Positions 140 to 10,313 of a stretch of DNA of 10,785 nucleotides are shown one piece after another. The first letter of the stretch is position 1. Each line of letters starts with the position of its first letter. Both the position numbers and the translations under genes were made by a program. This stretch comes from a virus (taxonomy: Duplodnaviria; Heunggongvirae; Uroviricota; Caudoviricetes), in the IMG/VR virus record IMGVR_UViG_3300029647_000054, positions 1-10,785 of that record; one strand, given 5' to 3'. Below the pieces are notes generated by a model that made no database searches, was not told the origin of the DNA, and was given only the letters and a program-made list of their open reading frames with translations.

Positions 140-295
140 TTACTCCTCAGGTTCGTAAGCTGTGAAGACAGTGACCTCCGTCTGGCCGGTTCGGATTCGT
201 ACCTCGCAGAGGTCTTTCCTCGTTACCAGTGCCGTCACAATGACGGTAATACAGATGACGATCAGGGCGACTAACATCGCCTTTTGCTGCTTCAT
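140..295 (-). CDS. hok: Hok/Gef family type I toxin (51 aa, HokD/HokC-like small membrane toxin)
   Basis: In-frame internal ATG at 295 of the 70-aa track ORF; product MKQQKAMLVALIVICITVIVTALVTRKDLCEVRIRTGQTEVTVFTAYEPEE closely matches my recollection of HokD/HokC; SD AGGAG about 7 nt upstream; single TM helix. Confidence 0.85.
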   Translation of the reverse strand: MKQQKAMLVALIVICITVIVTALVTRKDLCEVRIRTGQTEVTVFTAYEPEE

Positions 296-352
296 AGCCT
301 GCTTCTCCTTGCCTTTCGGCGTGTAAGAGGCTAACCTACATGTGACTAGCAT
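140..352 (-). CDS. mok: Mok-like in-frame upstream reading frame that couples hok translation (70 aa)
   Basis: ATG at 352 in the same frame as hok, as recalled for chromosomal mokC/hokC pairs; existence as a separate regulatory frame is inferred from the hok/sok paradigm. Confidence 0.5.
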   Translation of the reverse strand: MLVTCRLASYTPKGKEKQAMKQQKAMLVALIVICITVIVTALVTRKDLCEVRIRTGQTEVTVFTAYEPEE

Positions 353-410
353 GAAATTGGCCTCAGATTAATGTTAAGCGTCCTGCAAGACGCATAATGT
401 TAACTGGGGC
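340..410 (+). ncRNA. sok: Putative Sok-like antisense RNA overlapping the mok start region (approximate)
   Basis: Inferred from hok/sok architecture only; candidate promoter TTGCCT (309-314) - 17 nt - TAACCT (332-337) on the plus strand; no clean terminator seen, ends not determined. Confidence 0.25.
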
Positions 411-510
411 TTTTCTCTGTCTGCCTTACGGTGGCATGCCCGAGGCAGACAGCCTCAAGCACCCGCAGCAATTCTACTTAACTCTCGCTTTACCGCAAAC
501 CGTTTTTACC

Positions 511-7265: not shown

Positions 7266-7766
7266 ATGAAAAGAAAACCCCTGTCAGAGATCGACCTGCA
7301 AGCCGCCCAGAGACTGAAAGAAATCTGGACGACGAAAAAAACTCAACTTGGGTTAACCCAAGAGCGTGCGGCAGAAATTCTGGGTTTTTCGACACAAGGG
7401 GCAGTAAGCCATTATCTAAATGGTCAGACACCTTTAAATCTAGAGGCTGTTATCAAGTTCGCTGGGTTGCTACAAGTTCCGCCTGAGTCAATTAGACCAG
7501 ATATGGCAGACTTGTTACGAATTGTAAGGATGTACCCCCAAGAACTGCAGCAGGATAATGTTGTCGCTTTACCCGCAGAGATGGAACAATCGGAAAACGA
7601 ACTTCCGTTTAATATAGAACCTATAGAGCGAGATTTGATCCAGACGTTCAGGGCTTTCCCAAAAGAAGACAAAGAGAAAATGCTTAAGGAAATGAAGGAG
7701 AAAAAAGAATCAATTGAAGAAACCGTTGCGCGGTGGCTAGAGGCGCAAAAAGGTCTTCGCGCCTAA
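7266..7766 (+). CDS. paaR: CI-like HTH repressor, regulator of the three-component TA module (PaaR-like, 166 aa); no S24 peptidase domain
   Basis: N-terminal HTH (LGLTQERAAEILGFSTQGAVSHYLNG); divergent from Cro-like gene; directly upstream of antitoxin-toxin pair; C-terminus too short and lacks a LexA-like autocleavage domain. Confidence 0.75.
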   Translation: MKRKPLSEIDLQAAQRLKEIWTTKKTQLGLTQERAAEILGFSTQGAVSHYLNGQTPLNLEAVIKFAGLLQVPPESIRPDMADLLRIVRMYPQELQQDNVVALPAEMEQSENELPFNIEPIERDLIQTFRAFPKEDKEKMLKEMKEKKESIEETVARWLEAQKGLRA

Positions 7767-7783
7767 TCTGAGGAGGTTAGAAC

Positions 7784-7975
7784 ATGAGTACAGTCCTTTC
7801 CCCGATAATTTCAGAATTTGAAACAATCGAACAAGAAAACAGCTATAACGAATGGTTACGCACCAAAGTGGCAGCAAGCCTCGCAGACCCCCGTCCTGCA
7901 ATTCCGCATGACGAAGTAATGGCTGAAATGGAAAACCTTATTGCGCAAATAGCTTCGACGAACAGGAGTGAGTAA
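7784..7975 (+). CDS. paaA: PaaA-like antitoxin (63 aa)
   Basis: 63-aa acidic protein immediately upstream of and overlapping (TAATG) the ParE toxin gene; matches my recollection of the PaaA2 antitoxin from E. coli O157 paaR2-paaA2-parE2; SD GAGGAGG at 8 nt. Confidence 0.7.
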   Translation: MSTVLSPIISEFETIEQENSYNEWLRTKVAASLADPRPAIPHDEVMAEMENLIAQIASTNRSE

Positions 7976-8265
7976 TGCTGCCCATTTTATGGCTACCTTC
8001 TGCGCGTGATGATTTGCGTCAGATCGTAGCCTATATTGCCAAGGAAAACCCTCCCGCTGCACGTAGACTAAAAATACGCATTGAAACATCAGTTTTGTCA
8101 CTTACTGAACACCCTTACCTGTATCCACCAAGCGAAAGAGCCCTAGGCCTTCGTGAGATAGTGACCCATCCTAACTACATAATACTTTACCGAGTAACAG
8201 CATCTAACATCGAGATCGTAAATGTAGTTCACTCACGAAGGCAGTATCCAAACAAAAGCTGTTAA
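7975..8265 (+). CDS. parE: ParE/RelE-superfamily toxin (ParE-like, 96 aa)
   Basis: Typical ParE sequence features (LPILWLPSARDDLRQIVAYI...EHPYLYPPSE...REIV); start overlaps antitoxin stop by 1 nt. Confidence 0.8.
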   Translation: MLPILWLPSARDDLRQIVAYIAKENPPAARRLKIRIETSVLSLTEHPYLYPPSERALGLREIVTHPNYIILYRVTASNIEIVNVVHSRRQYPNKSC

Positions 8266-8538: not shown

Positions 8539-8691
8539 ATGGATACTATCGAGCTTGGCAACAGCGAATCTCTGGTATGCGGCGTGTTTCCCAACCAGGA
8601 CGGCACGTTTACCGCGATGACGTATACCAGAAGCAAAACGTTTAAAACGGAAGCTGGCGCGCGTCGCTGGTTAGCAAGAAGCTCTGACTGA
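8539..8691 (+). CDS. Small protein (50 aa), first gene of the PL-type operon; possibly YdfA/YdaF (DUF1391)-like
   Basis: ATG with SD GAGG at 5 nt; in frame with the track ORF whose GTG start lies inside the operator; family assignment is positional only. Confidence 0.4.
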   Translation: MDTIELGNSESLVCGVFPNQDGTFTAMTYTRSKTFKTEAGARRWLARSSD

Positions 8692-8789: not shown

Positions 8790-9236
8790 CTAACCACAAA
8801 GGAATCGCATCAATTTGGATTTTGCAGACAGTTTCTCTTGTTGTTCTACGGAGATTCCTATTTTGATCTGGGTTTTTAAGATTGCGATATCTTTAAGCGA
8901 CGACCAAATATTATCATCTGTTTTTTCCAGGAGCTTTAACTGCATTTTCAATTCCGAATCGGAATATTTTTCTGCATCATCATAAAGCTGCAGATATTCT
9001 GCGGATTTTCTCATTGCGTTACCTGACTTTTGTCCGAATCCGTAAATCGTTTGAACGGTTGCTATCACAACAATGAGAACTCCAGAAACTTCAGGAATAA
9101 ATCCACCAATGACAGATGAACCGAGGATAATACTCACCACTGAGAAAAGTTTATCGAGACGACCAGTCGCTACAGAGAATAGTTGTTCAAGAAAATAACC
9201 ATATAAAACCCTGTCAAGAATATCATCCCGGTCCAT
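8790..9236 (-). CDS. AT-rich two-TM membrane protein with coiled-coil-like C-terminus (148 aa); candidate superinfection-exclusion (sieB-position) protein
   Basis: Opposite strand to the surrounding operon; SD AGGTG at 8 nt; hydrophobic segments LFSVVSIILGSSVIGGFI and VLIVVIATVQTIYGF; clearly lower GC than neighbours; function inferred from position. Confidence 0.55.
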   Translation of the reverse strand: MDRDDILDRVLYGYFLEQLFSVATGRLDKLFSVVSIILGSSVIGGFIPEVSGVLIVVIATVQTIYGFGQKSGNAMRKSAEYLQLYDDAEKYSDSELKMQLKLLEKTDDNIWSSLKDIAILKTQIKIGISVEQQEKLSAKSKLMRFLCG

Positions 9237-9295: not shown

Positions 9296-9484
9296 ATGGT
9301 TTTGGTCGAATGTTTTTCTCAGGTATATGTTTCCTGGTATTCGGAATGTCCGCCCTGTCCGCAGGCTTACCAGTACCTGAACAATTCTTTTGAACCACCA
9401 TATAAAACACCTTCCTGTTGTTGGGGATATCCAGATTATACAGATTTCCTGTTATTGGGGAATGACGGAAACCACCTCGCCTGA
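9296..9484 (+). CDS. Small Cys-rich protein (62 aa), hypothetical
   Basis: ATG with SD GAAGGAG at 6 nt; six Cys including CPPCP and SCCW; preferred over the overlapping low-complexity minus-strand ORF. Confidence 0.4.
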   Translation: MVLVECFSQVYVSWYSECPPCPQAYQYLNNSFEPPYKTPSCCWGYPDYTDFLLLGNDGNHLA

Positions 9485-9699
9485 CGTGGTTAAAAGCAGG
9501 CACACAACACGAAAGCGCACGGCGAGATTCCTTTGCATATAAGGCTTGTCGTTAAATTTCTTCGACCGTGCACTTCCGGTTGTGGCAGTCCGCGAAATGG
9601 CGCGGCGGTAAGTATGGCTGGGGCTTCCTCCATTGCTCCAGAAAATGCACCGGGTCGTCAGGTTGACCATACGCTTAAGTGACAGCCCCGCCACAATAC

Positions 9700-9757
9700 C
9701 CATGTGTAGTATTTGGTGGCATCAGTTCTACTCCGTGACTGCTCTGCCACCCTTTTT
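9700..9757 (+). ncRNA. dicF: DicF-like small RNA (ftsZ-targeting sRNA family) with intrinsic terminator
   Basis: TTTGGTGGCATCAGTTCTACTCCGTGACTGCTCTGCCACCCTTTTT closely matches my recollection of K-12 DicF, with compensatory stem changes; sits directly upstream of dicB as in Qin. Confidence 0.7.
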
Positions 9758-9761
9758 AAAG

Positions 9762-9922
9762 TGAATTTTGTGATGCGGTGAATGCGGCTATGCGCACGCG
9801 GAACAGTTAAAACCGTAAAGTGGTCTTTTACGGGGCGTAACGGGCATCCTTCTGTATTCCGGCGTTAATTGTTAACTGGTTAACGTCACCTGGAGGCACC
9901 AGGCACCGCATCACAAAATTCA
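9762..9922 (+). repeat. Long-range 19-nt perfect inverted repeat (TGAATTTTGTGATGCGGTG at 9762-9780 and its reverse complement at 9904-9922) bracketing 123 nt between dicF and dicB
   Basis: Read directly; would form a 19-bp RNA duplex in the operon transcript. Confidence 0.7.
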
Positions 9923-9939
9923 TTGTTGAGGACGCGATA

Positions 9940-10128
9940 ATGGAAACGTTATTACCAAACGTTAATACGTCTGAAGGTTGTTTTGATATTGGTGTTCTGC
10001 TCAGTAACCGGGAGTTTACGGAAGATGCCATTAAGATGAGAAAATATGAACCTTATCTTCTCAATGATAATTCCATACTTTCCAGAATTGCCCTTCTTGA
10101 ACTTGGTATTATCGGAGAACAGCAGTGA
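9940..10128 (+). CDS. dicB: Cell division inhibitor DicB (62 aa)
   Basis: N-terminal 35 residues (METLLPNVNTSEGCFDIGV...FTEDAI) closely match K-12 DicB as recalled; C-terminus diverges; SD GAGGA at 7 nt. Confidence 0.85.
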   Translation: METLLPNVNTSEGCFDIGVLLSNREFTEDAIKMRKYEPYLLNDNSILSRIALLELGIIGEQQ

Positions 10129-10313
10129 CTTCAGCATTTGCACTGGTGATGACCGTTTTTCTTATAACGGGTGAGCCACAAAATGTGATTACCGGAATTT
10201 ATGACAGTAAGTCATCCTGCATTCAGGTAAGGGACGAACAAAAAATCCCCGGTGAATGCCTCCCGTTAAAAAAAGTATCGCTGAACCTGAATAACGAAAT
10301 ACCGGCTGGATAA
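10125..10313 (+). CDS. ydfD: YdfD-like small membrane/lysis protein (62 aa, GTG start)
   Basis: GTG overlaps the dicB stop (GTGA), SD GGAGAA at 5 nt; N-terminal hydrophobic helix; assignment by position in the dicB operon and size. Confidence 0.5.
   Translation: MTSAFALVMTVFLITGEPQNVITGIYDSKSSCIQVRDEQKIPGECLPLKKVSLNLNNEIPAG

Follow-up and report, generated by a model that had tools for sequence, protein, structure and literature searches.

A long-range helix between dicF and dicB: an extended closing stem in a domain related to STnc100, and a probable RNase III processing site

The RNase III sites of the T7 early region (R1 to R5) and of the lambda N leader are local hairpins of ~50-60 nt with internal loops. 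In the processing stalks of 16S and 23S rRNA, long-range flanking helices are cut on both strands by RNase III, and the folded RNA is excised. We analysed a 10,785-nt stretch of viral DNA, hereafter called the window, in which two distant complementary segments located between dicF and dicB pair around a folded RNA, as in the rRNA stalks. Unlike in those stalks, the enclosed RNA is small, and K-12 wild type seems to be depleted of it instead of accumulating it. The locus shares with the T7 and lambda sites a duplex within a long phage operon, where a cut by the host RNase III parts cistrons and can alter the translation of the next gene, the RNase III step being assigned here by homology with K-12. 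It differs from them in that the duplex is built from distant arms around a 123-nt folded domain.

The same locus is present, at ~87% identity, in a sister prophage, Qin of Escherichia coli K-12, for whose dicBF operon PMC5069750 and PMC9438474 report an RNase III processing site 3' of DicF, citing Faubladier, Cam and Bouche (1990). According to these two papers, the 3' end of the 53-nt DicF is generated by its own Rho-independent terminator, and a 72-nt DicF is made by RNase III from the full-length dicBF mRNA. Qin and the window share the order of elements, namely DicF, U-tract, AAAG, left arm, folded spacer, right arm and dicB ribosome-binding site. The Qin arms (GAUGUGGUG and CACUGCAUC) differ by two transitions, with U.G and G.U pairs where the window has C-G and G-C, and the duplex energies are -27.3 kcal/mol for Qin vs -32.1 kcal/mol for the window. 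The two prophages also differ in spacer length (Table 1), in their upstream genes and in DicB, over its C-terminal half.

The Rac prophage of K-12 harbours the same order of elements (MG1655 1418000-1418900, minus strand; our locus L303), with the KilS (b4833) hairpin and U-tract in the position of DicF, followed by the same left arm, a homologous domain, a right arm and kilR. There, the gene downstream is kilR instead of dicB, the right arm has a one-base bulge that splits the helix into 9 bp and 13 bp, and the loop of KilS differs from that of DicF.

The dicF-dicB region of the window

The stretch is 100% identical to a prophage adjoining ompW in E. coli strain G1/2, and matches to it are found in 4,634 of 5,426 complete E. 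coli genomes. Its RF00039 match is followed on the same strand by a gene of the DicB family (PF05358), which is the composition of a dicBF-type operon module (Table 1). Position 9700 is the equivalent of the annotated 5' end of K-12 dicF; in K-12, the Rfam match begins 1 nt inside the annotated gene. On the plus strand, the DicF terminator hairpin is followed by UUUUU (9753-9757), AAAG, the left arm, the 123-nt spacer, the right arm, five nucleotides, GAGGA and the ATG. A first-pass annotation made from the sequence had placed an inverted repeat between dicF and dicB, and both of its arms indeed lie 3' of DicF and 5' of dicB.

Table 1. Features of the dicF-dicB region (window coordinates)
Feature	Position	Strand	Remarks
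DicF small RNA	9701-9752	+	Rfam RF00039, 62 bits vs cut-off of 48
DicF terminator hairpin	~9715-9751	+	within DicF
Terminator U-tract and AA, UUUUUAA	9753-9759	+	predicted weak pairing with 9926-9932 in read-through RNA (MFE and centroid folds)
Left arm of closing helix	9760-9780	+	perfect 19 nt at 9762-9780; putative RNase III cut at ~9771
Internal hairpin H1	9784-9799	+	stem covaries C-G to G-C across the family; loop GCG invariant
Variable central hairpins	9813-9860	+	indel-rich between prophages; this version 13 nt longer than in K-12 Qin
Internal hairpin H3	9861-9887	+	10 bp, 7-nt loop; both GTTAAC sites; stem covaries in the family
Internal hairpin H4, CCUGG-AGGCA-CCAGG	9889-9903	+	abuts the right arm directly
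Right arm of closing helix	9904-9924	+	perfect 19 nt at 9904-9922; putative partner cut
dicB Shine-Dalgarno GAGGA	9928-9932	+	7 nt before ATG (9940); predicted pairing with U-tract 9753-9757
dicB, 62 aa	9940-10128	+	Pfam PF05358, 129.5 bits; also annotated by RefSeq at the identical G1/2 locus

A scan of positions 9400-10200 detected no promoter-like site and no plus-strand terminator-like site. The right arm does not have the form of an intrinsic terminator, as it is followed by UUGUUGAGGA, with no U-run. The sole terminator-like match in this interval is on the minus strand (9813-9833, CCGTAAAAGACCACTTTACGG followed by TTTTAACTGT; chance expectation 1.1), and it is the reverse of a central hairpin specific to the longer spacer variant. 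No tRNA- or tmRNA-like genes were detected in the window using ARAGORN. We also considered a coding role for the spacer. However, the ORFs at 9828-10031 (minus strand) and 9633-9764 (plus strand) were not taken as genes, because the central indels are not multiples of three.

The remainder of the window harbours other features. At its left end, a full-length match to the sok antitoxin RNA (290-464, minus strand; RF01794, 117.6 bits) implies a hok/sok-type toxin-antitoxin locus. Three genes in a row on the plus strand (7266-8265) code for a helix-turn-helix regulator (166 aa), a PaaA2-type antitoxin (63 aa) and a ParE toxin (96 aa). The trio stands where K-12 Qin has dicA, and it resembles the three-gene PaaR2-PaaA2-ParE2 module of O157 prophages. 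Lastly, a 148-aa ORF with no Pfam match (8790-9236, minus strand) is found between a ydfA-like gene (8539-8691, DUF1391) and DicF, at the position where K-12 has ydfB and ydfC. It would be convergent with the transcription of the dicBF operon.

The helix and the STnc100-like domain that it closes

The arms, 9762-9780 (TGAATTTTGTGATGCGGTG) and 9904-9922 (CACCGCATCACAAAATTCA), had been described as exactly complementary around 123 nt, and a repeat search recovered all 19 pairs at that spacing. Among the perfect inverted repeats of the whole window whose loops measure at most 200 nt, this one is the longest. In 20 shuffled versions of the window, the longest inverted repeats reached just 9-12 nt, and the analytic chance expectation for a 19-mer is 7.8e-6, which together rule out a chance origin. 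One A-U and one G.U pair extend the helix to 21 bp (9760-9780 with 9904-9924). E. coli RNase III takes duplexes of ~20-22 bp, i.e. about two nearly uninterrupted turns (PMC6212723), and the helix has this size, with 19 Watson-Crick pairs, or 21 pairs when the A-U and G.U are counted. The tandem GTTAAC sites noted in the spacer are present as well, at 9871-9876 and 9879-9884, where they form the loop and the 3' strand of the internal 10-bp hairpin.

The expectation of a long duplex in the operon transcript was borne out by RNA folding. Both the MFE and the centroid folds pair the two arms with each other, with z scores of -4.4 for the RNA 9695-9945 and -4.6 for 9753-9945, and the plus-strand RNA folds better than the minus-strand RNA by 11 kcal/mol.

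To follow the helix among related elements, we gathered loci from IMG/VR that matched a DicF pattern or a motif internal to the spacer or were found by searching for DicB, and GenBank phages were added. A DicB search of genome contigs yielded only two Escherichia albertii loci, and the diversity therefore comes from IMG/VR and the GenBank phages. The subfamily linked with DicF or KilS comprises 89 distinct sequences (202 instances). With one bulged base tolerated, 21 of 21 pairs are formed in 75 of them (84%), 20 in 13 and 19 in one, in a set of closely related sequences whose pair counts are not independent events and in which many identical pairs are inherited. Non-Watson-Crick cells amount to 148 G.U vs 13 A.C; as one G.U pair is constant, ~59 of the 148 are variable G.U cells. 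Two adjacent pairs vary, with C-G, U.G or U-A at one and G-C, G.U or A-U at its neighbour, and two full compensatory double changes are found in one locus (L265). The right arm is kept, with one bulged base, where kil or another gene replaces dicB downstream. Template-switch correction of quasi-palindromes could also be a source of matched changes in both arms, independently of selection. We conclude that the arms form an RNA helix on the transcribed plus strand, with mismatches biased between strands as an RNA helix predicts.

The arms do not stand alone as a palindrome: they form the closing stem, here lengthened, of a conserved multi-hairpin, STnc100-like domain of ~165 nt. In a permissive Rfam scan, positions 9750-9972 match the full RF02076 STnc100 model (1-206) with 36.8 bits (E = 1.1e-6 in a 341-nt search), a score below the RF02076 gathering cut-off of 47. 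At the gathering threshold, RF02076 had no match in the window, K-12 Qin, K-12 Rac, P7 or Stx phage 75/02. The RF02076 consensus includes the same long-range closing helix, and the window displays the STnc100 architecture, with GGUGAAU, the GCG loop of H1 and an H4 with CACCNGGAGGCACCNGGCACC that closes onto the stem. When canonical members are aligned with it by MAFFT, 30 columns are invariant, and the common structure proposed by RNAalifold covaries in all helices. The window and STnc100 have in common a closing stem ending in GGUG/CACC, an AAU, H1, a variable centre, H3 and H4. The H4 motif CACCNGGAGGCACNNGGCAC is almost invariant, its two stem N positions covarying (G-C or U-A).

There are also differences. 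H1 has GCGGC.. in the window for CCCCC.. in STnc100, and the middle stem pair of H4 is U-A for G-C. The closing stem has 21 bp in the window and 8-9 bp in the family. Furthermore, the window element is in an early (pL-type) operon right behind a small-RNA terminator, whereas members of the family form tandem arrays behind phage tRNAs. Canonical copies (77-165 bits) stand in tandem, two to four together, immediately after clusters of phage tRNA genes and on the same strand as these (L248, 811-1488; L217, 2265-3380). In GenBank phages, the spacer is also found without DicF. It precedes kil in the Stx phages 75/02 and POCJ13 and, within the ban operon of P7, terB; Klebsiella phages have it too, and D6 matches the same spacer stretch as P7. 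PasD is a reported relative of STnc100.

The window could be aligned with 82 STnc100-like relatives, giving an alignment of 83 distinct family members anchored by MAFFT only. RNAalifold identified a five-helix structure in it, in which the closing helix corresponds to columns 19-26 with 172-179, and five of its eight pairs display both-side, compensatory changes. Covariation is also seen in the internal hairpins. When the full 21-bp helix was placed on this alignment, 71% of the cells paired, vs 60% in shuffles and 33-49% in slid registers. Its covariation score of 0.341 (vs 0.192) was attained by none of 500 shuffles. A Shine-Dalgarno-like GGAGG (9892-9896), which spans the 5' strand and the loop of H4, is invariant in all 83 elements; no start codon is found at the right distance downstream of it.

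The inner 8-9 bp of the helix are family-wide, and the outer 12-13 bp are paired only in the DicF/KilS-linked subfamily and in a second lineage. In the three loci of the latter (L231, L234 and L277), the interior is nearly identical to that of the window, and the closing stem is a perfect 20-22-bp helix of unrelated sequence (CAACAGACCTTGCAATGCAGTG and CACTGCATTGCAAGGTCTGTTG). The P7 relative has a closing stem of only 9 bp (ATTGCGGTG and CACCGCAAT), itself with compensatory changes, and the domain can therefore exist without an RNase III-sized helix. Closing the domain thus does not require a long duplex, yet one was built twice from different sequences and kept intact.

RNase III at dicF-dicB

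In MG1655, dicF is at 1649382-1649434 and dicB starts at 1649609. The 72-nt length of the RNase III-dependent DicF, which is given in two secondary statements, leads from the DicF 5' end to MG1655 1649453. This is position 9771 of the window, the tenth of the 19 positions of the left arm. No second RNase III-sized duplex was found downstream of DicF.

In a comparison of wild-type and rnc deletion strains by RNA-seq (Gordon 2017, Table S1), a site flagged as known is listed at 1649470, 'intergenic dicF-dicB', with 0/0 reads in the wild type vs 26 in the mutant. The method reports coverage-ratio peaks, one site per 400 bp, and has many low-count entries, and its resolution is low. The peak corresponds to about position 9788 of the window, 8 nt into the loop and outside the arm. 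We take this signal as supportive only. The same study has an rnc-dependent peak in Rac at 1418510, which is just 5' of KilS, near its 5' end, and not in the stem.

A double cut by RNase III leaves 2-nt 3' overhangs, and the two positions between the cuts are paired, usually with G-C (Altuvia 2018, PMC6212723). A cut after 9771, a position deduced from the 72-nt length of the secondary sources, would place G9770-C9914 and U9771-A9913 between the cuts, the former being a G-C pair of the sort preferred in vivo. By the overhang rule, the partner cut would leave the 5' end of the dicB mRNA near 9915.

Another RNase III site has been published upstream of DicF. According to Ragunathan 2023 (PMC10448788), a site ~137 nt upstream gives the 5' end of a 190-nt DicF, and ydfA-containing transcripts vanish in the rnc deletion strain; a downstream site is not mentioned there. 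The loss of the ydfA transcripts points to an upstream RNA that is made more stable by RNase III processing. The accounts of the 72-nt 3' end and of the 190-nt 5' end, which both cite the 1990 study, do not exclude each other. We considered a matching long-range helix for the region of the published upstream site (9536-9700; Ragunathan 2023, Fig. S1), but its predicted fold is no more stable than those of shuffles (z = -0.78). We considered the 1,146-nt transcript of the same work as a marker of a 3' end in the right arm and dropped it, as the origin of its numbering is not given in the text.

Based on these data, the RNase III site that had been proposed 3' of DicF is supported in the literature for the K-12 homologue, with the 72-nt end in the left arm and the site of Gordon 2017, and it would extend to the present allele by homology. 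The proposal that processing releases DicF stands in part. As the main DicF 3' end is produced by termination at its own terminator, the main published route, RNase III would free DicF from read-through transcripts only. In our assessment, a probable RNase III duplex 3' of DicF matches the published K-12 biology, and the core of this finding is already known.

Might the helix be a mere closing stem of an STnc100-like domain that has a job of its own, being for instance a platform for binding or else a small RNA that is stable, with RNase III cleavage as incidental turnover that has no role in DicF release or dicB expression? The family-wide inner stem fits this reading, as it occurs also in elements away from DicF and dicB, such as those that follow phage tRNAs or stx2 and the one that precedes terB in P7. 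Canonical STnc100 RNAs accumulate in EHEC, one of them having been seen on a Northern blot according to the literature, and, to judge from its invariant loop motifs, the domain may be functional in its own right. Nevertheless, 8-9 bp suffice in P7 and in most members, whereas the extension to 21-22 bp arose in two lineages with unrelated sequences and has remained intact in most of the distinct DicF/KilS-linked sequences. In addition, the published 72-nt end, as relayed by the secondary sources, maps within the extension. Reads from the domain are absent in wild type and present in the rnc mutant, which speaks against the excised RNA being stable in K-12 under the conditions of that study. We therefore regard an incidental cleavage of the stem as unlikely.

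Translation of dicB and the proposed processing

When the RNA starts at the U-tract, the predicted helix runs on past one bulged G, with UUUUUAA (9753-9759) pairing with UUGAGGA (9926-9932). Five Us thus face the GAGGA Shine-Dalgarno sequence, with predicted unpaired probabilities of ~0-0.3, and the same is predicted for K-12 Qin. This pairing is weak, consisting of three G.U and two A-U pairs. Where kil lies downstream, the predicted partner of the U-tract is an A-run immediately 5' of GGAG. In a third type of downstream context (L070 type), the ribosome-binding site is ~10 nt or more from the stem, and pairing between the U-tract and the Shine-Dalgarno sequence is absent. The outer duplex left after a mid-stem cut is A/U-rich (-13.6 kcal/mol in trans) and should fall apart, so that RNase III cleavage could unmask the start of dicB, as far as these predictions go. 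They make plausible the suggestion of the first-pass annotation that the duplex could set dicB translation. The dicB start codon itself is in a predicted local hairpin (GAUAAUG-GAAA-CGUUAUU, ~9936-9955), likewise in K-12 Qin, which overlaps a direct repeat (AAACGTTATTAC and AAACGTTAATAC).

These predictions could also be read without RNase III, the helix being an attenuator that blocks ribosomes at dicB, or else a terminator or Rho barrier on the read-through RNA. The predicted extended helix of 28 bp does cover the dicB Shine-Dalgarno sequence, and the A-run pairing in the kil contexts also speaks for this reading. However, the Shine-Dalgarno pairing is both weak and specific to some contexts, and the RNase III-dependent 72-nt species is left unexplained. 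Termination at the right arm is excluded by the sequence, which lacks a U-run there, and the scan found no plus-strand terminator at this place. The attenuator is largely compatible with processing by RNase III and does not exclude it; as an explanation that dispenses with the enzyme, it is very unlikely in our view.

A function of the repeat as DNA, with the arms as MITE-like terminal inverted repeats, as a cruciform, as a palindrome bound by protein or as a joint between recombined prophage modules, appears most improbable. It would account for terminal inverted repeats of 19-21 nt around ~125 nt, for a multi-copy family (11 Rfam STnc100 copies in EDL933) that occupies many contexts, and for a homology to other prophages that ends just past the right arm, where dicB is swapped for kil or other genes. 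Against it, inspection showed no target-site duplication beside the arms, all 90 distinct true DicF loci harbour the element and no empty sites were seen. Most family members have a short covarying stem with non-conserved termini, and the preponderance of G.U among the mismatches on the transcribed strand (148 vs 13) is not favoured by a DNA structure. Orientation was compared in multi-copy loci, and the tandem copies are co-oriented in six of the seven listed.

The explanation that we consider probable is that a read-through helix closes the STnc100-like domain and is cut by RNase III between DicF and dicB. From the fold, the conservation and the covariation of the helix obtained here, read-through of the DicF terminator would allow the arms to pair in the plus-strand RNA as a helix of at least 21 bp and to close the STnc100-related domain. 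Relative to the short stems of most relatives, the closing stem would thereby be extended to about two turns, a duplex size accepted by E. coli RNase III. On the strength of the K-12 literature, which provides the RNase III dependence and the 72-nt end, the enzyme would cut mid-way through the left arm, at ~9771. We infer a matching cut in the right arm at ~9913-9915. Such cleavage would part the upstream RNA, ending in the 72-nt DicF precursor, from the dicB message, and would also excise or destroy the spacer domain. The 72-nt species might then be trimmed back to the terminator, and the dicB ribosome-binding site, paired with the U-tract as long as the helix is intact, may be unmasked by the cut.

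A broader proposal can be made for the three-part module in which a small-RNA terminator is followed by an STnc100-like domain with a long stem and then by the site where ribosomes bind the message of a division inhibitor, as in DicF-dicB, KilS-kilR and the kil loci of Stx phages. The module might be one conserved post-transcriptional switch, in which only read-through RNA would form the stem, the U-tract would mask the start of the toxic gene, and RNase III would license its translation and free the small RNA. STnc100-family RNAs would then not be small RNAs of the ordinary base-pairing kind but processing cassettes within long operons of phages. We find this generalization rather doubtful at present.

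The novelty of these observations is low, and the kinship with STnc100 is a modest new point. Both this kinship of the arms and the three-part module shared before dicB and kil appear to be absent from the searchable papers, and they are modest points; one paper on STnc100 relatives mentions neither DicF nor RNase III.

DicF and DicB are prophage products that halt the division of the host cell, alter sugar uptake and affect virulence in EHEC. The yield of each from one transcript therefore matters, and the stem would be the physical point that parts the small RNA from the message of the toxic protein. The published RNase III-dependent 72-nt end can now be assigned to a specific, strongly conserved helix. 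For the control of dicB translation, the predicted pairing of the U-tract with the Shine-Dalgarno sequence makes for a concrete prediction. Lastly, the lengthened STnc100-like closing stem ties a family of unknown function to a probable role in RNase III processing.
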